Source: Candidatus Acidiferrales bacterium
GTDB lineage: Bacteria > Acidobacteriota > Terriglobia > Acidiferrales > UBA7541
Assembly (NCBI GenBank): GCA_050014395.1
Contig: JBEKDK010000004.1
Location: 9,765-73,764, forward strand
Reading direction: 5' to 3'
Length of the DNA stretch: 64,000 nucleotides
Positions 11,344 through 52,887 of the stretch are shown here, in pieces. The position numbers and the translations under genes are program-made. How positions within the stretch are numbered: the stretch's first letter is position 1; the number at the start of each line of letters is the position of its first letter. The notes beneath the pieces were generated by a model. That model had not been told where the DNA came from and did not search any database. It saw nothing but the letters and a program-made list of their open reading frames with translations.

Positions 11344-13143
11344 TTATGGCAGCGTGTAGCGCAAGTCCACGTAGACCATGAATAGGTGAGCATCGTGGGG
11401 TGCGCCGGTAGCGACGAACCACGGGGCGCGCGTTAGATACGACCCTTGAGTGATCAGCGAGACGGCACCATAGTTCGGGTTTTTGAAGAAGGTTTGAATT
11501 ACACCAATCGTCGCTTCCTGAATGGAGCGATTTTGGCTGTTCGGTCCGCCAGAGTACCCATAACCTTCAAGCTTGGTTGAGGTGCTGGCAGGATCCTGAT
11601 AGAAGGCACGTCCGAAGTAGTCTCCGCCATAGTATCCGTAGAGGAATGACTTCGGTGTGGCCTGCCATTCGAAGCCGGTGATCGTGGAACCGGCCTTCAA
11701 CGGGACGGGAAGAAACGAAGATGTGGTGGTGAGTTGCTGGACCACCAAATCCGGCCCCCCCGCTTCGAGGTACCGGCCGCCTCCATCGCTCCAGTAGCCC
11801 GTGCCGATCCAGTGGAAATTCTTCACGAGTTCGAGGTTCAAGTTCGCCTCGATTCCACCGCCCACCGACGAGTTCGTGACGCGACTTGTGCTGACGACGA
11901 CCGAACCGGGGGTCACCAACTTAAACTCACTCAGGAGGCCGGCGACATCGAAGTGCCACGCTGTATTGCCGACCTTCGGGTCGGCGGCGAGTTTGAAGAT
12001 GAAATCAGGCGCGACGTTGGGTGTCGGCGGGGTCGCAAGCATTCCTCCGCTGGTTGCGTCCACAGCGCCGGCCACTCCGCTAAACGCCGTCGGAGTTGTC
12101 GCCGCGCCGCCCAAGAACTGGTCGGGATTTTCGATTGAAAGGCCGATGGCCCAAGTGCTGTTGGGATGATAGACGAACCGAACTTGCGGCGCCCTCGTCC
12201 AAGTCAAGCCAACTTGGTAGTTCGTGTCCATGTCTTGTGAATAAAAGATGTCGCTGGGGTATGGTGACAATCCCTTTCTGTTTGGCGTCAGCATCGACCA
12301 ATCCTGCCCCGCGAGAAATTCGAACTTCCCCTTGCGGTAATCCGCGAAGTACACACGCATACGCAGGGAGTTCGAGTTGCTGGTGTTGTTGGCGTTTTGT
12401 GCGGTGAGGCCCAGGAAGTCGGCCTCAAGGTAGCCCGTGACGGTCGCGCTGCCTACGGGTGCGTCTACGCGCAAACCGATTCGCGAGTTCTGCGCGCTGA
12501 AACGGTCTTCGGTTAGCCCCGCGGCCGGCAAGCTGTTGTTGTACGGAACACCGGTGAAGCTGGTGCCGATGCCATTGCCGGTGCCCGTGGTGCGGAAGAC
12601 GTCCGTCAAGTCCATGAAGCCGAGCGGCGTGAATGTGGCGTCGCCGATCTTGAAGCTGAGCGGGCTGTGCTGCGGCGCGCCCGTATCGGCTGCCAACTTG
12701 GCCGATGACTTTGCCGTCCGCGTTGCCGCGGCCGTCGCGGCGGGTGGCGGCGGCGTGATGGCCATCGCCATAGCCGCCGGTGCGGACGCCGGTGCCGCTG
12801 CTGAAATGCTCGATGAAGGCGCCGGCTGTGCCGAGTTGCTGCTGCTGTTGTCGCCGAGCTTGGCCTTCATTTCCGCGAGTTCTTCTTGCTGCTTCTGAAT
12901 CTGTTCGGATTGCGATTGCACGAGAATCCGCATCTGATCAATCTCATCTTGCAAAACGGCGCTTGACGGCGCCGCACTCACCGGCGCGGTGGACGGTTGC
13001 GTAGTCGCCGCAGGCGTCCCGCCGCTGTTTGCCGTAGTTCCCGCCGAGCTACCCCCTGAATCTCCACCGCCGGGTCCGCCGGCATATGCCACCGGGGACA
13101 CGAGCACGCATAAGGACAACACCCAGACTGCAATGTTACGCAT
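11344..13143 (-). CDS. outer-membrane porin, probably phosphate-selective (OprO/OprP-like)
   Basis: Start set at ATG 13143 (AGGAGG 7 nt upstream) giving signal peptide MRNIAVWVLSLCVLVSPVAYA; low-complexity region and coiled coil, then a long beta-rich C-terminal domain; Pho-box array upstream. Confidence 0.55.
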   Translation of the reverse strand: MRNIAVWVLSLCVLVSPVAYAGGPGGGDSGGSSAGTTANSGGTPAATTQPSTAPVSAAPSSAVLQDEIDQMRILVQSQSEQIQKQQEELAEMKAKLGDNSSSNSAQPAPSSSISAAAPASAPAAMAMAITPPPPAATAAATRTAKSSAKLAADTGAPQHSPLSFKIGDATFTPLGFMDLTDVFRTTGTGNGIGTSFTGVPYNNSLPAAGLTEDRFSAQNSRIGLRVDAPVGSATVTGYLEADFLGLTAQNANNTSNSNSLRMRVYFADYRKGKFEFLAGQDWSMLTPNRKGLSPYPSDIFYSQDMDTNYQVGLTWTRAPQVRFVYHPNSTWAIGLSIENPDQFLGGAATTPTAFSGVAGAVDATSGGMLATPPTPNVAPDFIFKLAADPKVGNTAWHFDVAGLLSEFKLVTPGSVVVSTSRVTNSSVGGGIEANLNLELVKNFHWIGTGYWSDGGGRYLEAGGPDLVVQQLTTTSSFLPVPLKAGSTITGFEWQATPKSFLYGYYGGDYFGRAFYQDPASTSTKLEGYGYSGGPNSQNRSIQEATIGVIQTFFKNPNYGAVSLITQGSYLTRAPWFVATGAPHDAHLFMVYVDLRYTLP

Positions 13144-13296: not shown

Positions 13297-13342
13297 CCCA
13301 AAAACAAAAAAAACCACCTGCCAGATCGTCTCTGGCGGTGGG
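13297..13342 (-). terminator. intrinsic terminator, near-identical to the sat-leader terminator
   Basis: Minus strand CCCACCGCCAG-agacgat-CTGGCAGGTGG followed by T9GT5; about 38 of 43 positions identical to 33521..33563. Confidence 0.75.
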
Positions 13343-13372
13343 TCACCGAAATCCACGGCTTCAGTTCGGCCG

Positions 13373-13468
13373 TTAGCTCCCTCGGATAGACTTCCCTCCG
13401 CCAGAAGACGCGTCAGCGCAATGCGCACGACAACAGGTGAGGATGGCAGTTTGAATCTCGATCGTCAC
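13373..13468 (-). CDS. candidate 31-aa leader-like sORF (VTIEIQTAILTCCRAHCADASSGGGKSIRGS)
   Basis: GTG start 8 nt after AAGGGGG; 3 Cys; 3' part (GCGTCTTCTGG, encoding ASSG) shared with the sat leader. Confidence 0.35.
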   Translation of the reverse strand: MTIEIQTAILTCCRAHCADASSGGGKSIRGS

Positions 13469-14941: not shown

Positions 14942-14983
14942 AAAAAAAAATGCCCGTCTATCGGCAGGAACCGATGATCGGGC
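14942..14983 (-). terminator. intrinsic terminator following the polycysteine sORF
   Basis: Minus strand GCCCGATCATCGG-ttcctg-CCGATAGACGGGC followed by A then U9. Confidence 0.8.
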
Positions 14984-15006
14984 GTTTTGTTCCGAACGCT
15001 AAATTC

Positions 15007-15102
15007 TTAGGAAGACATTCGGGTCGCACCCGCACACCGGCCGCTCGCCGTTCGACAACACGGCGCGCAACAACCGGTGCAACAGATGCGGCTCATCGAC
15101 AT
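15007..15102 (-). CDS. polycysteine leader sORF, 31 aa (MSMSRICCTGCCAPCCRTASGRCAGATRMSS)
   Basis: 7 Cys including three CC pairs; ATG lies 7 nt after a TAGGAT -10 element; stop 23 nt before a strong terminator. Confidence 0.6.
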   Translation of the reverse strand: MSMSRICCTGCCAPCCRTASGRCAGATRMSS

Positions 15103-15109
15103 TCGGCGA

Positions 15110-15138
15110 ATCCTACAGAGAGATCAAACGCGTGTCAA
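15110..15138 (-). promoter_or_regulatory. sigma70-type promoter TTGACA-17-TAGGAT driving the polycysteine sORF (probably leaderless)
   Basis: Minus strand TTGACA (15138-15133), 17-nt spacer, TAGGAT (15115-15110), then 7 nt to the ATG at 15102. Confidence 0.55.
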
Positions 15139-15199
15139 GCATCAAAAGACCAAATTCATTTTCTGCGCCTGTGGGTATTTCACCCCTATTTTTTCGGGT

Positions 15200-15217
15200 T
15201 GTAACACGAGTGTAACA
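15200..15217 (+). promoter_or_regulatory. putative Pho box upstream of pstS
   Basis: TGTAACA-CGAG-TGTAACA: two identical 7-mers separated by 4 nt (11-bp period), 43 nt upstream of the pstS ATG. Confidence 0.55.
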
Positions 15218-15259
15218 ATTCCGAGCAAGAATCAGCGGCGAGGAGATTCCCCACCTACC

Positions 15260-16276
15260 ATGAAAAAGATATTGCTCGCTCTCTCGCTCTGCCTGGGCAT
15301 CGCAGGAATGCTGGCGGCCGATAATCCGATCCAGCTCAATGCTGCAGGCGCGACGTTCCCCAACCCGATCTATTCGAAGTGGTTCGACGAATATCACAAA
15401 ATTAGCGGCAATGTGGAGATCAACTACCAGAGCATCGGTTCCGGCGGCGGAATTCGGCAATTGATCGCGCACACCGTGGACTTCGGCGCTTCCGACATGC
15501 CAATGACGGACCAACAATTGCAGCAGGCAGGTTTCAAGATTCTTCACTTCCCCACCGTATTGGGCGCGGCCGTGCCGAGCTACAACGTTCCGGGCGTGAC
15601 CACCGACTTGAAGTTCACGCAGAAGGCGCTGGCCGGAATTTACCTGGGCACGATCACCAAGTGGAACGATCCGGAAATCGCCAACGCCAATAAGGGCGTC
15701 AATCTTCCGGCGGCCGACATCGTGGTGATTCACCGCTCCGACGGCAGCGGCACATCCTTCATCTGGACCGATTTCCTCTCCAAGGCTAGCGCCGATTGGA
15801 AAAACAAAGTCGGAAGCAATTCGTCGGTGAATTGGCCGGTGGGATTGGGCGGCAAAGGCAATGAAGGCGTCGCCGGACTTCTGAAGCAGACGCCCGGTTC
15901 GATCGGCTACGTCGAATTGATCTACGCCGTGCAAAACAACATCGCCTACGGCGAAGTGCAAAACGCCAGCGGCACGTTCGTCAAAGCGAGCTTCGACAGC
16001 GTCAGCGCAGCGGCCGCCGGGGCGGCTAAAACCATGCCCGACGATTTCCGCGTCTCGATCACCAACGCGCCGGGCAAAACCGCGTATCCGATCTCCAGCT
16101 TCACATGGCTGCTGATTCCCGCGCAGATCCAGGACGCGGGCAAGCGCGATATCATCAAGGCCTTTCTCAAATGGATGCTCACCGATGGGCAAAAGGATTG
16201 CGCCGGTTTGTCGTACGCACCGCTGCCGGCTCCTATCGTAACCAAGGAACTGAAGGCTATTTCACTGATCCAGTAG
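15260..16276 (+). CDS. pstS: phosphate ABC transporter substrate-binding protein
   Basis: Signal peptide MKKILLALSLCLGIAGMLAA; GATFPNPIY, SIGSGGG and HRSDGSGTS motifs of PstS. Confidence 0.9.
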   Translation: MKKILLALSLCLGIAGMLAADNPIQLNAAGATFPNPIYSKWFDEYHKISGNVEINYQSIGSGGGIRQLIAHTVDFGASDMPMTDQQLQQAGFKILHFPTVLGAAVPSYNVPGVTTDLKFTQKALAGIYLGTITKWNDPEIANANKGVNLPAADIVVIHRSDGSGTSFIWTDFLSKASADWKNKVGSNSSVNWPVGLGGKGNEGVAGLLKQTPGSIGYVELIYAVQNNIAYGEVQNASGTFVKASFDSVSAAAAGAAKTMPDDFRVSITNAPGKTAYPISSFTWLLIPAQIQDAGKRDIIKAFLKWMLTDGQKDCAGLSYAPLPAPIVTKELKAISLIQ

Positions 16277-16315
16277 CGTTCGGCAAGATATCGGTTACTG
16301 GACCGAACACAAATC

Positions 16316-17305
16316 ATGGCAACGAGTGACACTTCTGTAGTCGTGCGGCCTGCGGGCTTCTGGAGCCCGCAGGCCGTGCTGCGTCGATTGCGCAGCGGCG
16401 ACGCCATCGCGCACATGGTGACGTTGGTGTTCGGGGCGCTGGTTCTGCTGATCACCGTGCTGCTGGTCGGACAATTGTGGACCCACTCGTCAGCGTCGCG
16501 CGCGGCGTTCGGATGGCATTTCCTGACGACGAGCGTATGGGACCCAGTCTTCGACAATTACGGCGCGCTGACTTTCATCTACGGCACTGTGGTGACGACG
16601 TTCCTGGCGCTTTTGATCGCCGTGCCGCTGGGCTTGGGCGCCGCGATTTTCCTTTCCGAACTTGCGCCGCCGAAACTTTCGGCCGGCCTCTCCTTTGTCG
16701 TCGATCTTTTGGCCGCGGTGCCGAGCGTGATCTACGGACTGCTGGCCATCTTCACACTTTTGCCTTTGCTTTCGACAACCGTCGAGCCTTTTCTGAAAAA
16801 GACGCTGGGCTTTCTGCCGCTGTTTCAGGGGCCGGCGTACGGCGTCGGCTTTCTGGCGGCCGGCTTGGTGCTGGCGATCATGATCGTGCCGTACATCGTA
16901 TCGGTATCGCGAGAAGTGCTGCTCTCCGTACCGGCCGATCAGCGCGAAGCGGCGCTGGGCCTGGGCGCGACGCGCTGGGAGACCACCTGGAGAGTTGTGG
17001 TGCCGTACGCGCGAATCGGAATTATGGGCTCGGTGTTCCTCTCGATGGCGCGCGCGCTGGGCGAAACGATGGCCGTGACGATGGTGATCGGCAACACGCC
17101 GAAAATTTCGGCGTCGCTGTTCGCTCCGGGTTACACGATCGCGGCGGTGATCGCCAACGAATTCACAGAAGCCACCGGCAATCTTTACCTGAGCGCGCTG
17201 ATCGAGCTCGGACTTGTGCTGTTCCTTCTGACGTTCATTCTGAATGGCCTGGCGCGGATCATGATGGCGGCCACCGAATCGCGCGGTGGCGGGATGCGCA
17301 CATGA
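16316..17305 (+). CDS. pstC: phosphate ABC transporter permease
   Basis: Polytopic; EAALGLGATRWET...ARALGETMAV EAA-loop region; position after pstS. Confidence 0.9.
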   Translation: MATSDTSVVVRPAGFWSPQAVLRRLRSGDAIAHMVTLVFGALVLLITVLLVGQLWTHSSASRAAFGWHFLTTSVWDPVFDNYGALTFIYGTVVTTFLALLIAVPLGLGAAIFLSELAPPKLSAGLSFVVDLLAAVPSVIYGLLAIFTLLPLLSTTVEPFLKKTLGFLPLFQGPAYGVGFLAAGLVLAIMIVPYIVSVSREVLLSVPADQREAALGLGATRWETTWRVVVPYARIGIMGSVFLSMARALGETMAVTMVIGNTPKISASLFAPGYTIAAVIANEFTEATGNLYLSALIELGLVLFLLTFILNGLARIMMAATESRGGGMRT

Positions 17306-33333: not shown

Positions 33334-33361
33334 TTGAGATATCCTGAGGATATGAGATACT
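33334..33361 (+). promoter_or_regulatory. candidate promoter (TTGAGA-16-GATACT) overlapping inverted repeat ATATCCTgAGGATAT
   Basis: TTGAGA 33334-33339, GATACT 33356-33361, ATG of the Cys-rich sORF 10 nt later; perfect 7-bp inverted repeat at 33339-33353. Alternative -10 choices exist. Confidence 0.3.
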
Positions 33362-33371
33362 TCCGTCGCTC

Positions 33372-33491
33372 ATGAACGATCAAATCCAGAAGACGGCTTG
33401 CTGCTGCGGCGTGGTGTGCTGCTGCATTATGTGTTGTTGTGCGCCATGTTGTTGTATGCCCGCGTCTTCTGGGGGGATCCTGACGAGCTAG
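33372..33491 (+). CDS. polycysteine leader sORF, 39 aa (MNDQIQKTACCCGVVCCCIMCCCAPCCCMPASSGGILTS)
   Basis: 12 Cys codons as four CCC triplets (6 TGC then 6 TGT); flanked by complementary 10-mers; terminator 30 nt downstream; precedes sat. Confidence 0.65.
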   Translation: MNDQIQKTACCCGVVCCCIMCCCAPCCCMPASSGGILTS

Positions 33492-33520
33492 AACTAAAAA
33501 TAGCTCAACCGTAGTCAGAG

Positions 33521-33563
33521 CCCACCGCCAGAAGACGACCTGGCAGGTGGGTTTTTTGTTTTT
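33521..33563 (+). terminator. attenuator terminator upstream of sat
   Basis: CCCACCGCCAG-aagacgac-CTGGCAGGTGGG followed by TTTTTTGTTTTT; 60 nt before the sat ATG. Confidence 0.75.
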
Positions 33564-33623
33564 AGGAAGCGAAAGGCAAGACCGACCACTCAAAAACGAG
33601 AGTCGACCCGGGAGAACCGCTAG

Positions 33624-34826
33624 ATGACCGCCGCCACCGAAACGAAAAATATCGCCGCGCACGGGGGCACGCTCGTCAATCGCGTCGTTCCGCCCAACGC
33701 CAGGGAAGAAATGCGGGCGCGCGCCGCCGCACTTCGCCCGGTGCGCATTGACGCTCGCGCCGCAAGCGAGCTGCTGCTGATCGCCACCGGCGGCTTCAGC
33801 CCGCTTGAAGGTTTCCAAACCAAGGCCGCGGCGCAATCTGTCGTCGACAAAATGTCGCTCCCCGACGGCATGCTTTGGCCGCTGCCGATTCTGCTGCAAC
33901 TCACGCCCGCCGAAGCTGGGGATGTGCGCGTGGGCGAGCGCGTCGTTCTTGTCCTCGATGGCGAGCCATTGGCCACGCTCGACGTGGAAGATCGTTTCAC
34001 CGTGCCGGCCGACGAATGGGCGCCGAAAATCTTCGGCACCAGCGACGCGAAGCATCCGGGCGCTGTGGCTCTGCGCAACGCGGGCGAGATCGCCCTCGGC
34101 GGAAAAATCGAATGGCTAGGTGAGCCGACGCTTCCGGGATTAGGTGAGCGATGGCGCACGCCCGCCGAAACGCGGGCCGAGATTAGAGCGCGCGGCTGGA
34201 ATACCGTGGCCGGCTTCCAGACGCGCAATCCCGTGCATCGCGCGCACGAACACGTGCTGCGCATCGCGCTCGAAGTGACCGACGGATTGCTGCTGCATCC
34301 GCTGGTCGGCGAAACGCGCGCCGAAGATATCCCCGCCGACATTCGCATGCGCTGTTACCAGGCGCTGCTCGACAATTACCTGCCGCAAAAGCACGTGCTC
34401 TTCACCGTGTTGCCGGCCTTCATGCGCTACGCCGGTCCGCGCGAAGCCATTTTTCACGCGCTAGTGCGCAAGAATTTTGGCTGCACGCATTTCCTTGTCG
34501 GGCGCGACCACGCCGGCGTCGGCGGCTACTACGGTCCATACGAGGCGCACGAATTGCTGCGATCGGTTGCTGATCGCGGCCTGGATATCCAGCCGATTTT
34601 CTTCGACGAAGTTTTTTACTGCAATCGATGCGGTTCGATGGCCAGCCGCAAAACCTGCGCGCATCCCGACGACGCCCATCTCAGCCTAAGCGGCACGGAA
34701 GTTCGCCGCCGCTTGCGCGAAGGCTTGCCTTTGCCGGTGGAATTCACGCGGCCCGAAGTCGCCGCAGTGCTTGCCGAAGCGTTCCGCGAACCTGCCGGCG
34801 CAATCCAGGAGACGCAACGTGGTTGA
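33624..34826 (+). CDS. sat: sulfate adenylyltransferase (ATP sulfurylase, homomeric type)
   Basis: QTRNPVHRAHEH and GRDHAG motifs; about 400 aa with no APS-kinase domain. Confidence 0.9.
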   Translation: MTAATETKNIAAHGGTLVNRVVPPNAREEMRARAAALRPVRIDARAASELLLIATGGFSPLEGFQTKAAAQSVVDKMSLPDGMLWPLPILLQLTPAEAGDVRVGERVVLVLDGEPLATLDVEDRFTVPADEWAPKIFGTSDAKHPGAVALRNAGEIALGGKIEWLGEPTLPGLGERWRTPAETRAEIRARGWNTVAGFQTRNPVHRAHEHVLRIALEVTDGLLLHPLVGETRAEDIPADIRMRCYQALLDNYLPQKHVLFTVLPAFMRYAGPREAIFHALVRKNFGCTHFLVGRDHAGVGGYYGPYEAHELLRSVADRGLDIQPIFFDEVFYCNRCGSMASRKTCAHPDDAHLSLSGTEVRRRLREGLPLPVEFTRPEVAAVLAEAFREPAGAIQETQRG

Positions 34827-35589
34827 AATTCTTCTCGGTGTCGTCGGCGGCATTTTGGTCGGCGCTACCGGTTCGGGATTCGGCACCGTGATCACGCCGG
34901 TCCTGCTGCTCTTGGGCTATCGCCCGGCTGTGGCGATCGGAACGACGCTCGGCGTGCTTGTAGCCACAAAATTTGTCGGCGCGGTGACGCACCATCAATT
35001 GGGTCACTGGCCGCGGCAACATGTCTGGCTGCTATTGGCCGGTGGCGTGGGCGGCGCGCTGGTGGCGGGCTACGCCGCGGCTACGTGGATGCCCGCACTT
35101 TCCGATGGAAATCGCTTGCTGGCGCGCCTGCTGGGGGCGGCCCTGCTCGGTCTGGCGGCGTTTATTTTCGGGCAGGAGCTTTGGACGAAATATGGGCGCG
35201 CACCGGTATTGGCAGACGAGATTCCGAAGGAGCGCGGCGGGCCAATGACGTTGTTTGCCGTCGGGATGGGCACGGGCGCAGCAGTGACGCTGACGGCGGC
35301 TGGCTCGGGCAGCGTTCTCGTTCCCGCGCTGGCCCTAGTGACGAATTGGAGCACGGCACAATTGGCCGCGGCCAGCAATTTGTTCGGCTGGGTGGTGGGC
35401 GCGATCGGAGTCCTATTGTTCTCCCACGCGGGAGCGTTCGAGTGGCCGCTGTTCGCAAAAGTTTTGGTCGGCACGCTGCCGGGAATCTATCTCGGCGCGA
35501 TCGCTTCGCGCTACATCAAGCGCGGCTGGTTGCTGCGAGGCGTGGGCGTGATCGCAGTGATTCTGGGCGTGCGCCTGATTTTCCGGTAA
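34819..35589 (+). CDS. TSUP (TauE/SafE) family membrane permease
   Basis: GTG 34819 (AGGAGA 6 nt upstream) overlaps the sat stop by 8 nt; two glycine-rich repeat halves (GGILVGATGSGFG / GTGAAVTLTAAGSG). Confidence 0.75.
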   Translation: MVEILLGVVGGILVGATGSGFGTVITPVLLLLGYRPAVAIGTTLGVLVATKFVGAVTHHQLGHWPRQHVWLLLAGGVGGALVAGYAAATWMPALSDGNRLLARLLGAALLGLAAFIFGQELWTKYGRAPVLADEIPKERGGPMTLFAVGMGTGAAVTLTAAGSGSVLVPALALVTNWSTAQLAAASNLFGWVVGAIGVLLFSHAGAFEWPLFAKVLVGTLPGIYLGAIASRYIKRGWLLRGVGVIAVILGVRLIFR

Positions 35590-35627
35590 ACTTTCCGATA
35601 GGCCCTCACAAAGGAGAAACAAAGCGA

Positions 35628-36338
35628 ATGGATACGCTTCAACAGGATTCACTGCGGCAAGAAGTGGCGGCGCAGCAGCAAGCGGCTGAGTCGTGGGACG
35701 CTGCTCAGCTAATCAAATGGGGGCTCGAGCGATTCGGCAAGAACCTTTCAATTGCATCGAGCTTCGGCGCCGAGGATGTTGTATTGGTGGAACTCGCCAA
35801 GCGCGCGGGAGTTCCCTACCGCGTCTTCACGCTCGACACCGATTTTCTTTTCCCCGAAACGTACACGCTGATCGACAGCACTGAAAGACTCTACGGCGTG
35901 CACGTCGAACGCACCCGCCCGGCGCTCACTCCTGAAGAGCAGGCCGCGAAGCATGGCGATGCGCTCTGGGGACGCGAGCCCAATCTGTGTTGCTCGATCC
36001 GCAAGGTTGAACCCCTGAAGAAAATGCTCTCCGGCCTGGACGCCTGGATCACCGGAATTCGCCGCGACCAGACCCCCCAACGCGCCAACGCCAAAAAGAT
36101 CGATTGGGACGCCGGCTTCGGCCTGGTGAAAATCAATCCGCTGGCCGATTGGACTTCCGATCGCGTCTGGGATTTCATTCGCGACAACAAAGTTCCTTAC
36201 AACGCGCTGCATGACAATCATTACCCGAGCATCGGCTGCACCTATTGCACGCGCCAGGTGATGCCCGGCGAAGATCCGCGCGCCGGCCGCTGGTCCGGAT
36301 TCACCAAGACCGAGTGCGGACTGCACGCAAAAGAGTAA
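35628..36338 (+). CDS. cysH: adenylylsulfate (APS) / PAPS reductase, Fe-S-type signature
   Basis: AAGGAG SD; C-terminal ECGLH motif; CC (CCSIRKVEPL) plus CxxC (GCTYCT) pairs typical of [4Fe-4S] APS reductases; no cysC in the operon. Confidence 0.85.
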   Translation: MDTLQQDSLRQEVAAQQQAAESWDAAQLIKWGLERFGKNLSIASSFGAEDVVLVELAKRAGVPYRVFTLDTDFLFPETYTLIDSTERLYGVHVERTRPALTPEEQAAKHGDALWGREPNLCCSIRKVEPLKKMLSGLDAWITGIRRDQTPQRANAKKIDWDAGFGLVKINPLADWTSDRVWDFIRDNKVPYNALHDNHYPSIGCTYCTRQVMPGEDPRAGRWSGFTKTECGLHAKE

Positions 36339-37364: not shown

Positions 37365-38189
37365 ATGCAGCGAAGACTTGCGTTGGACACCCCGCTCGCG
37401 GCCCCGCTAACATTGCACATGGACACCACTGCTCTGTCCCCCGTGGACGTACAAAGCGAAGTTCCCAACGACGTTCTAACCATTGATTTCGACTTTCTCC
37501 TCGAGATCACCAGCCGGATCGCCGCGGCCGATGAACTCGATAAAGTGCTCGGGCGCGTGGTCGATTTTGTTTCAACTCTCGTGAAATGCGATTCCTGCTT
37601 CATTTACATTCTCGAAGGAAAGGAACTTATTCTGCGCGCCTCAAAGAATCCTCATCCCGATATCATCGGCCGTCTGCGTCTGCACGTCGGTCAAGGCATC
37701 ACCGGATGGGTGGCTGAGCACAGAGAGCCGGTGACAGTTGCGCGCCATGCATCCAAGGATCCGCGCTTCAAAGTGTTTCACGAACTGCCGGAAGATAGTT
37801 TCGAGGCTTTCCTTTCGGTTCCCGTGCTGTGCCGCGGACGCCTCGTCGGCGTCATCAACCTGCAGCACAAGCAGCCTCACCATCACAGCAAGCGCCAGAT
37901 TCAATTGATTTCGACGATCGGGTTTCTGGTCGGCGCCGAAATCGAAATGGCGCGCCTGGAAGGCGAAAATTCCGAATTAAACGAGCAACTTGAAACGCGC
38001 AAGGTCGTGGAGCGCGCCAAGGGAATTCTGCAACGTGAGCTGCGCATCAGCGAAGAGGAAGCCTATCTTTCGATGCGAAAGCAAAGCCGCCAGCGGCGTA
38101 TGCCGATGAAAGATATCGCTTCGGCCATCGTGCTCAGCGACGAAGTGCATCGCGGCCGCAGCCCGGTCTCAAACGCTCGTACGGCTTAG
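37365..38189 (+). CDS. GAF + ANTAR domain RNA-binding antitermination regulator
   Basis: GAF domain (ITGWVAEHREPV, VPVLCRGRLVGVINL), coiled linker, ANTAR helices (VERAKGILQRELRISEEEAYLSMRKQSRQRRMPMKDIASAIV). Confidence 0.85.
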   Translation: MQRRLALDTPLAAPLTLHMDTTALSPVDVQSEVPNDVLTIDFDFLLEITSRIAAADELDKVLGRVVDFVSTLVKCDSCFIYILEGKELILRASKNPHPDIIGRLRLHVGQGITGWVAEHREPVTVARHASKDPRFKVFHELPEDSFEAFLSVPVLCRGRLVGVINLQHKQPHHHSKRQIQLISTIGFLVGAEIEMARLEGENSELNEQLETRKVVERAKGILQRELRISEEEAYLSMRKQSRQRRMPMKDIASAIVLSDEVHRGRSPVSNARTA

Positions 38190-51168: not shown

Positions 51169-52887
51169 TTAAAAAAGAAAATAGCGTTGCGCCATCGGCA
51201 GCACGCGCGCCGGCTCGCACGTCAGCAATTCGCCGTCGGCGCGCACCTGATAGGTTTCAGGGTCCACTTCGATGCGCGGCAGCGCGTCGTTGCGAATCAT
51301 GTCGCGCTTGCTCAGCCCGCGGCAGCGGCGCACCGCGGAGATTCTCTTTTTCAATCCCAATTTCGCCGGCACTCCGCCATCCAGCGCCGCCTTAGAAACG
51401 AACGTCAACGAAGTCGAATTCACCGCTGCGCCGAAGCTGCCAAACATCGGCCGATAAAGCACCGGCTGCGGCGTGGGAATCGAAGCGTTGGCGTCGCCCA
51501 TCGCGGCCCACGCAATGAAGCCGCCTTTCAGAATCATTTCCGGCTTCACGCCGAAAAACGCCGGCGTCCACAACACCAAATCCGCAAACTTCCCCGTCTC
51601 AACCGACCCAACTTCGTGCGCAATTCCGTGCGTGATCGCGGGATTGATCGTGTATTTCGCCACGTAGCGCCGCACGCGCAGATTGTCGCTCCCGGATTTT
51701 TCGCCCGGCAACGGCCCGCGCTGCTTTTTCATTTTGTCCGCGGTCTGCCACGTGCGAATCACCACTTCCCCGATGCGCCCCATGGCCTGCGAATCTGACG
51801 ACATCATGCTGATAGCGCCCAAATCGTGCAGCACGTCCTCGGCGGCGATCGTTTCAGCGCGAATGCGCGACTCCGCAAACGCCACGTCTTCCGGAATCGA
51901 TGGACTCAAATGATGGCAGACCATCAGCATGTCTAGATGCTCGTCGAGCGTGTTGACGGTAAACGGCATCGTGGGGTTGGTCGATGACGGCAAACAATTC
52001 GGCTCGCCGCAGACCGTGATAATGTCCGGCGCGTGTCCGCCGCCCGCGCCTTCAGTGTGATACGTGTGGATCGTGCGCCCGCGGAACGCGCGAATCGATT
52101 CCTGCACGAAGCCGGCTTCGTTCAGCGTGTCCGTGTGAATCGCCACTTGTACGTCGAATTCTTCGGCCACTCCCAGCGCGCAATCGATCGCCGCCGGCGT
52201 CGTGCCCCAGTCTTCGTGCAGCTTCAATCCGATCGCGCCGGCTGCGATCTGCTCGATCAGCGGCTCCGGCCACGACGCGTTGCCCTTGCCGAGAAAACCG
52301 AGATTGATCGGAAAGCCTTCCGCGGATTCCAGCATGCGATGCATATTCCACGGGCCGGGCGTGCACGTGGTGGCATTGGTGCCGGTGGCGGGCCCCGTAC
52401 CGCCGCCGAGCAGCGTGGTCACGCCGGCAGCGAGCGCCGTCTCCACGAGCTGTGGGCAAATAAAATGTATGTGCGAATCGATTCCGCCGGCCGTGGCGAT
52501 TTTTCCTTCTCCGGCGATCACCTCCGTGCTCGCGCCGACGACCATGCCGGGCGTCACGCCATCCATCAAATCTGGATTGCCCGCCTTGCCGATGCCCACG
52601 ATTCGTCCGCCGCGAATCCCGATATCGGCCTTCACGATTCCGCTGTGATCCAGGATCACAGCGTTGGTGATCACCGCGTCCAGCGCTCCGCCGGCGGCCG
52701 TGGCCGTGCTCGATTGCCCCATGCCGTCGCGCAACACTTTGCCGCCGCCGAATTTCGCCTCTTCGCCGGGCGTGGTCAGGTCGCGCTCGATCTCAATGAA
52801 AAGATCGGTGTCGGCCAAGCGCACGCGATCGCCCACGGTGGGACCGTAAAGGTCCGCGTACTGACGGCGTGGAATATTCAGGCTCAC
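51169..52887 (-). CDS. ureC: urease subunit alpha
   Basis: 572 aa; [21 protein letters not shown] active-site motifs. Confidence 0.95.

Follow-up and report, generated by a model that had tools for sequence, protein, structure and literature searches.

A cysteine-codon leader with the architecture of a transcription attenuator in front of sat in Acidobacteriota

The classical attenuators of the trp, his, leu, thr and ilv operons consist of a short leader open reading frame (ORF) with a run of codons for the cognate amino acid, followed by the mutually exclusive pairings 1:2, 2:3 and 3:4, the last of which is an intrinsic terminator placed just before the first biosynthetic gene. The same layout is found around a small ORF (sORF) rich in cysteine codons in front of the sat-TSUP-cysH genes of a 64,000-nucleotide (nt) stretch of an Acidobacteriota genome, called the window below, for which the nearest relative found is a Candidatus Acidiferrales metagenome-assembled genome (MAG). 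We propose that this element, copy 1, is a classical ribosome-mediated transcription attenuator which would sense charged tRNA-Cys and gate the sat-TSUP-cysH operon, a reading drawn from the sequence and from fold models to which we assign a probability of roughly 85%.

Compared with the classical enterobacterial attenuators, the element would sense cysteine, its target is sulfate assimilation and its phylum is Acidobacteriota. In addition, its sORF probably has no 5' untranslated region or next to none, the regulatory codons can number as many as 12-16, and those of copy 1 occupy the loop that joins segments 1 and 2 and not segment 1 itself. No sequence similarity to the classical attenuators exists, and Rfam gave no relevant match to copy 1 at E-values up to 10, nor to two further copies in the window (copies 2 and 3) at E-values up to 1; at the gathering threshold, a search of the whole window gave no match at the attenuator copies.

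Polycysteine leaders have been predicted in Actinobacteria, where they come without terminators (Seliverstov et al. 2005, PMC1262725). The polycysteine sORF of Mycobacterium smegmatis acts by sequestering the downstream ribosome-binding site (Canestrari et al. 2020, bioRxiv 10.1101/834739), and the mycobacterial sORFs occur as several independent copies per genome, together forming a regulon governed by tRNA-Cys charging which has been called a 'ribulon' (bioRxiv 10.1101/834739). As in mycobacteria, the leaders described here stand at the 5' end of cysteine and sulfur operons and are present in several copies per genome, and promoter spacing suggests that a leaderless architecture may also occur in both. 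In contrast, the mycobacterial case is one of translational control without a conserved terminator, whereas here a canonical terminator and an antiterminator are conserved and segment 2 competes for a terminator arm; the phylum differs as well, and the sequences are unrelated.

A further predicted attenuator is the uORFC-8-2 motif upstream of cysS in Rhodobacterales, whose Cys-codon upstream ORF is followed by a terminator stem and U run (Brewer et al. 2021, PMC8632094). This alphaproteobacterial motif contains two tandem Cys codons near codons 14-15 and is restricted to cysS (PMC8632094). The leaders studied here contain 3-16 Cys codons, have a different structure and are followed by sat, cysD, sulfite reductase and rhodanese genes instead of cysS. 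In the literature searched, no earlier cysteine leader was found in Acidobacteria or before sulfate-assimilation genes, and a search specific for rhodaneses was also empty, in agreement with an original prediction, made from the DNA letters of the window, that none had been described for such organisms. Apparently, this large family of Cys leaders was undescribed until now.

The leader and its alternative folds in front of sat

The leader sORF devotes 12 of its 39 codons to Cys, arranged as four triplets between codons 10 and 28 (Table 1). Six of them are TGC and six TGT, with TGC confined to triplets 1-2 and TGT to triplets 3-4; by comparison, a crude count over the long ORFs of the window gave TGC 179 : TGT 73, and the eight genes adjoining copy 1 contain TGC 17 : TGT 3. 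A density of at least six Cys in eight residues is reached by no further stop-to-stop segment of the window. The 10-mer CCAGAAGACG is present on the forward strand at 33386-33395 and again at 33528-33537, and its reverse complement lies at 33463-33472. The window contains four matches to it in total as against 0.08 expected from shuffles, the fourth, at 13401, being part of copy 2.

The intrinsic terminator formed by segments 3 and 4 has a stability of -22.4 kcal/mol, and its T tract ends 60 nt before the sat ATG (33624), with 132 nt between the sORF and sat on the same strand. The original prediction had listed the sORF with its four Cys triplets, half of them TGT, the duplicated 10-mer with its complementary copy, and the terminator at 33521-33563 with its T6GT5 tract; all of these were read in the sequence as described there. 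A simple consensus terminator scanner did not report the copy 1 terminator, probably because of a bulged A in the stem, and it was therefore not used in the family work.

Table 1. Positions of the leader elements and associated genes in the 64,000-nt window
Feature	Position	Strand	Remarks
Putative sigma-70-like promoter, copy 1	33334-33361	+	-35 TTGAGA 33334-33339; 16-nt spacer with TG; -10 GATACT 33356-33361
Perfect palindrome	33339-33353	.	ATATCCTgAGGATAT; within promoter spacer
Leader sORF, copy 1	33372-33491	+	39 codons, ATG to TAG; product MNDQIQKTACCCGVVCCCIMCCCAPCCCMPASSGGILTS
Segment 1	33385-33395	+	UCCAGAAGACG; codes for IQKT; 3 nt between its end and first Cys codon
Regulatory Cys codons	33399-33458	+	
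Segment 2	33463-33475	+	CGUCUUCUGGGGG; codes for SSGG; alternative partners segment 1 or segment 3
Middle hairpin	33480-33518	+	-11.7 kcal/mol; holds leader stop UAG (33489-33491); 2:3 helix stacks on it
Segment 3	33521-33537	+	terminator 5' arm CCCACCGCCAG (33521-33531) plus loop bases AAGACG; contains second CCAGAAGACG
Terminator loop	33532-33539	+	8 nt
Segment 4 and U tract	33540-33563	+	3' arm CTGGCAGGTGGG 33540-33551; T6GT5 33552-33563
sat, sulfate adenylyltransferase	33624-34826	+	first regulated gene in the model
TauE/SafE (TSUP) family membrane protein	34771-35589	+	start codon uncertain
cysH-type PAPS/APS reductase	35628-36338	+	homology from about 35628, inside over-long ORF 35085-36338
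Element copy 2	13300-13468	-	sORF GTG 13468 to TAA 13373, product MTIEIQTAILTCCRAHCADASSGGGKSIRGS; 3 Cys
Segment 2, copy 2	13410-13398	-	CGTCTTCTGGCGG
Terminator, copy 2	13342-13314	-	CCCACCGCCAG...CTGGCAGGTGG; T tract 13313-13300
599-aa secreted protein behind copy 2	11344-13143	-	
Element copy 3	14942-15138	-	sORF 15102-15007, product MSMSRICCTGCCAPCCRTASGRCAGATRMSS, then stop; 7 Cys
Promoter, copy 3	15138-15110	-	TTGACA 15138-15133; 17-nt spacer; TAGGAT 15115-15110; 7 nt to ATG 15102
Terminator, copy 3	14983-14952	-	GCCCGATCATCGG/CCGATAGACGGGC; T9 14950-14942
YeiH-family transporter	14669-13584	-	'putative sulfate exporter'

The region 33360-33565 folds at -88.1 kcal/mol (z = -5.7), and none of 200 shuffled sequences was as stable. 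As a free transcript, copy 1 consists of a long 1:2 hairpin (-48.0 kcal/mol), the upper part of which is the Cys-codon region folded back on itself, followed by the middle hairpin and the terminator. The competing 2:3 duplex amounts to -24.2 kcal/mol, and the segment 2-to-3 region alone, with the middle hairpin stacked inside, to -35.0 kcal/mol. In a footprint model, Cys codon 10, 11 or 12 was put in the ribosome A site and partial as well as full transcripts were folded under this constraint. The footprint on these codons covers segment 1, and transcripts ending at 33540 or 33548, i.e. before segment 4 is complete, then form a 14-bp antiterminator. A ribosome-free copy 1, or one whose ribosome has reached the stop codon, folds as 1:2 hairpin plus terminator. 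The original prediction had proposed a comparison of folds with segment 1 masked or free.

Under the attenuation model, transcription would start at the ATG (33372) or a few nt ahead of it, and a ribosome would translate the leader while RNA polymerase nears the terminator. With ample Cys-tRNA, the ribosome would pass the 12 Cys codons and reach the UAG at 33489, and segment 1 would re-pair with segment 2 in the hairpin of about -48 kcal/mol. This would leave segment 3 free for segment 4, and transcription would end in the U tract (33552-33563), short of sat by 60 nt. With scarce Cys-tRNA, the ribosome would stall at the first Cys codons, 3 nt past segment 1, and hide this segment; segment 2 would then capture segment 3 as soon as it emerges, the terminator would come too late, and the polymerase would continue into the genes of sulfate activation and reduction. 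We infer the transcription start site, the translation of the sORF and the stalling at Cys codons as steps of this model, along with transcription-translation coupling in Acidobacteriota and a response to cysteine in vivo.

Both hexamers of the putative promoter and their spacing are kept in the closest relative (L001). As 10 nt separate the -10 hexamer from the sORF ATG and a Shine-Dalgarno sequence is lacking, the copy 1 mRNA is probably leaderless or carries a 5' untranslated region of a few nt. The promoter spacer contains a perfect palindrome, which had given rise to the suggestion of a second, protein-mediated layer of control. The palindrome itself is present as described, but L001 carries AAACTCCGGCGGTAT at the aligned position and a protein operator at this site was rejected, since the palindrome is not conserved in this relative. 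The palindrome, the strong fold with its z-score of -5.7 and a GAF-ANTAR protein encoded 3.5 kb downstream would also suit a structured cis-regulatory RNA, i.e. a riboswitch or protein-binding leader in which the ORF is incidental, or else a repressor on the promoter palindrome. We regard such a mechanism as extremely unlikely: in addition to the lack of a matching Rfam family and the loss of the palindrome in L001, elements with unrelated segments 2-4 share an in-frame Cys run between a start and a stop codon.

Cys-rich leaders in relatives and metagenomes

It had also been proposed to scan the regions upstream of sat in related genomes. We looked at 80 genome loci with Sat relatives and checked their upstream regions for Cys-rich sORFs. 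The nearest Sat (85% identical) belongs to L001, a Candidatus Acidiferrales MAG, and the next ones to Terriglobia and Acidobacteriota MAGs. A Cys-rich sORF with an intrinsic terminator was found before sat or sulfite reductase-sat in five acidobacterial relatives (L001, L002, L003, L008, L049). Segments 1-4 of L001, including segment 4 and the U tract, are 100% identical to copy 1 and the spacer 3' of the terminator has diverged; an 18-nt insertion adds a Cys block, giving a 45-amino-acid (aa) leader with a total of 16 Cys codons. Shorter Cys leaders with terminators stand immediately before sat in L003, L008 and L049, and the leader of L002 precedes sulfite reductase-sat-TauE. Among the 80 loci, no convincing Cys-rich sORF was seen upstream of sat in Sat relatives from Chloroflexota, Bacillota and other phyla.

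For the metagenome scan, the pattern was taken from the terminator sequence alone (CCCACCGCCAGA, 3-9 nt, CTGGNNGGTGG). At least 120 loci were obtained (L081-L200), 118 of which are unique, and all family counts given here and below are among the matches listed. Although only the terminator was used in the scan, a Cys-rich sORF is present in about 104 of the 118 unique matches, with its stop codon 26-38 nt (about 30) before the terminator and with the consensus ..QK[NT]A..C.CC.CC..VSSGAGRL... In essentially all of the about 120 relatives, a GC-rich hairpin is directly followed by a U tract.

The genes behind the Cys leaders code for CysD (17 loci), sulfite reductase (10), Sat (3), a tandem rhodanese resembling 3-mercaptopyruvate sulfurtransferase (19) and a single-domain rhodanese (19); CysK, TauE and a secreted protein without Pfam match were also found. 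In addition, FadL/TodX-like outer-membrane proteins (L138, L156) and beta-carbonic-anhydrase-like proteins (L161, L177) are encoded directly behind Cys leaders and have no obvious link to sulfur; the latter might be carbonyl sulfide (COS) or carbon disulfide (CS2) hydrolases, which is speculation on our part.

The number of Cys per leader has a median of 5 and ranges from 3 to 13 in the counted tail, with 16 in L001. Copy 1 with its four Cys triplets, a layout described as extreme in the original prediction, thus stands near the upper limit of the family without being unique. In 91% of 92 leaders, the end of segment 1 falls between -30 and +15 nt relative to the first Cys codon, and exactly 9 nt separate the last Cys codon from segment 2 (UCUUCUGG) in 54 of 96. 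Simulations with a ribosome on the first or middle Cys codon gave the antiterminator before segment 4 is made in 99-103 of 104 leaders; for the free RNA, the 1:2 pairing together with the terminator was obtained in 100 of 104. A spacing of exactly 6 nt between the -10 hexamer and the start codon is seen in 24 of 95 members, and one of 3-11 nt (the tested range; 6-10 nt were seen) in 36 of 95 as compared with 3 of 95 shuffled controls. Because -10 hexamers crowd just ahead of the start codons in this way, many leaders of the family are probably leaderless.

The Cys codons of the leaders are mostly TGT (TGT 396 : TGC 187), and those of the genes behind them mostly TGC (TGC 273 : TGT 51). A comparable choice is known from the leu leader of E. 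coli, which uses rare CUA codons. This preference for the rare codon bears on the possibility that the sORF codes for a functional Cys-rich peptide, either metal- or redox-active or the precursor of a ribosomally synthesized and post-translationally modified peptide, and that the hairpin merely ends a small gene. The extreme cysteine density would suit such a peptide, and a few homologues are annotated as hypothetical proteins in metagenomes of the Joint Genome Institute (JGI). A profile search led by the 45-aa L001 leader against 5.8 billion predicted proteins gave 7 matches, none of them informatively named; leader peptides are almost never called by gene finders. However, the peptides vary in length and in Cys number (3 to 16), with conservation limited to Met1, some of the Cys positions and a single Gly. 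Genes for maturation or export do not accompany the sORF, and the conserved C-terminal VSSG motif coincides with RNA segment 2, for which 11 of 96 leaders use a different reading frame. As the same scaffold is also found with Thr or Val/Ile/Leu codons before aspartate kinase and ilvC (see below), a functional peptide seems highly improbable to us.

To judge from the alignments, constraint acts on the RNA and not on the peptide. The QK motif of the leaders corresponds to segment 1 (CCAGAAGA) and the VSSG motif to segment 2 (GUCUUCUGG), the CUGG core of which is read in two frames (85 versus 11 of 96 leaders). In the 2:3 alignment, 86.8% of the cells are paired as compared with 32-50% when the partner is slid. 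Segment 2 is complementary to five different terminator sequences and always lies 40-54 nt upstream of the terminator. In elements with other terminators it reads GCCCGAUCAUCGG in copy 3 of the window, GACGCCCGCUGA.. in L008 and L049 and CCCACCACCGG in L135b. RNAalifold, applied to the alignment from segment 2 to the terminator, recovered the terminator alone and no consensus middle hairpin, because the middle region aligns too poorly.

Ten of the matches contain the same terminator scaffold without a Cys leader. In detail, Thr-rich leaders stand before aspartate kinase in L145, L147, L149 and L169 (e.g. MRITSTKSTTTTKKSTT, WTTTATTTM, KRITSMSTGTSTRIS) and leaders rich in Val, Ile and Leu before ilvC in L105, L111, L175, L176 and L186 (e.g. 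TRISVVVAVGVRVRLV, LITVVVVVSVRVRLV); for L114, the downstream gene was not recovered. The scaffold behind the Thr- or Val/Ile/Leu-rich leaders reads CCCACCGCCAGA...CTGG..GGTGG. The repeated codon therefore follows the downstream pathway, and such tracking of the pathway by codon identity is a hallmark of leader-peptide attenuation. Since the terminator scaffold follows all these types of leader ORFs, a single attenuator scaffold appears to serve several amino acids in Acidobacteriota.

Evidence for and against a transcriptional read-out

The sequence parts of the element, the energetics of its alternative folds, the conservation and co-variation of the design and the association with sulfur genes can be read from the sequences and the fold models. 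The energies, the conservation, the co-variation and the match between codon and pathway support, within the reach of sequence comparison and folding models, the trp/his-type attenuator with 1:2, 2:3 and 3:4 pairings that the original prediction had put forward.

Several findings weigh against this model. When segment 1 is masked in full-length copy 1, antiterminator (-48.8 kcal/mol) and terminator (-49.4 kcal/mol) are nearly equal in energy, and in 96-99 of 104 family members the terminator remains the equilibrium fold under masking. The choice between both structures must therefore be kinetic, and read-through relies on kinetic trapping. The trp terminator, too, is more stable than the trp antiterminator, and there as in the Acidobacteriota element the outcome is a kinetic one. 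The original prediction had assumed that a stall on the Cys codons masks segment 1. This holds for the first triplet, but in the simple footprint model it holds for this triplet only: stalls at triplets 2-3 need an assumed steric block, and a stall at triplet 4 would start covering segment 2, so that the combination of a hidden segment 1 and a free segment 2 was found for triplet 1 and not for triplet 4. Furthermore, the 1:2 duplex is just moderately better than shuffled controls (median z = -1.65). Formal covariation statistics for 2:3 are flat, which is uninformative because the search pattern fixed segment 3, and the evidence for 2:3 co-variation consists of a handful of elements with other terminators. 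Finally, the gap of 10 nt between the -10 hexamer and the ATG without a Shine-Dalgarno sequence makes translation initiation of the copy 1 sORF uncertain.

Some of these points would also fit an sORF that senses cysteine with a translational output, by sequestration of the ribosome-binding site, or with an output by Rho-dependent polarity, the hairpin and U tract being secondary. The sole experimentally dissected polycysteine sORF is translational (bioRxiv 10.1101/834739), many members of the present family look leaderless as in mycobacteria, and the terminator is the equilibrium fold even when segment 1 is masked. On the other hand, essentially every member contains a GC-rich hairpin with an immediate U tract, the copy 1 terminator lies 60 nt upstream of the sat start and thus away from the sat ribosome-binding site, and segment 2 is contested by the terminator's 5' arm instead of a Shine-Dalgarno sequence. 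We therefore consider these outputs improbable and retain transcription attenuation as the preferred reading.

Further copies in the window and implications for Acidobacteriota

Altogether, the 64-kb window contains three copies of the Cys-leader attenuator. Copy 2 has a Shine-Dalgarno-like GAAAGGGGG ahead of its GTG start, the same terminator type as copy 1, and leader motifs (IQ.TA and ASSGG) homologous to those of copy 1. It sits between the gene of a YeiH-family transporter and that of a 599-aa secreted protein. This protein, found behind a Cys leader both in the window and in a metagenome contig (L135; 599-622 aa), has a signal peptide, a low-complexity region, a coiled coil and a probable beta-barrel. 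Searches of Pfam and NCBIfam gave no match and the PDB gave a weak one, the DcaP-like porin 6eus (E = 0.0013); the protein may serve sulfur compounds as a channel through the outer membrane.

The sequences of segments 2, 3 and 4 in copy 3 are unrelated to those of copy 1. Copy 3 is followed by a 46-codon ORF and then by the YeiH-family transporter gene. An ABC transporter divergent from copy 3 (15077-17305, +) was considered as a sulfate carrier and rejected, as it is a PstS/PstC phosphate system and unrelated. Since the GTG annotated as the pstS start (15077) overlaps the Cys leader of the minus strand, the true pstS start is probably further downstream.

At the end of the sat-TSUP-cysH cluster, hemD (HemD) comes next and is directly followed by the gene of the GAF-ANTAR protein (37365-38189, +), a member of a family of RNA-binding antitermination regulators. 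Above the gathering score, Rfam gave a sole match in the window, 5_ureB_sRNA (52440-52734, +; 82.6 bits), which may merely reflect conserved ureB gene sequence.

With these leaders, a familiar type of regulator gains a new family in a phylum new to it; the breadth, the regulon and the modular scaffold of the family are notable, and its mechanism is unsurprising. Acidobacteriota are among the most abundant soil bacteria, and to our knowledge almost nothing is known about their gene regulation. For this phylum, the element offers a concrete and testable model of how sulfate assimilation, sulfite reduction, cysteine synthesis and rhodanese-type sulfur transfer may be controlled. It also represents an RNA and sORF family of more than 100 members which is absent from Rfam, and it extends cysteine-specific attenuation past Actinobacteria and Rhodobacterales, with a canonical terminator as read-out. 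Additionally, guilt by association points to a possible role in sulfur metabolism for the DcaP-like secreted protein, the FadL-like outer-membrane proteins, the beta-carbonic-anhydrase-like proteins and the YeiH-family transporter.

A broader reading, tentative and in our view somewhat less than an even bet, is that Acidobacteriota run their sulfur assimilation mainly via a tRNA-Cys-charging 'ribulon' with many separate Cys-leader attenuators. A reusable cassette of segment 2, segment 3 and terminator would underlie them, duplicated and re-programmed by swaps between Cys, Thr and Val/Ile/Leu codons. If true, regulatory evolution would here have proceeded by reusing modules, and leaderless sORFs like those of mycobacteria would be combined with classical terminator/antiterminator control.

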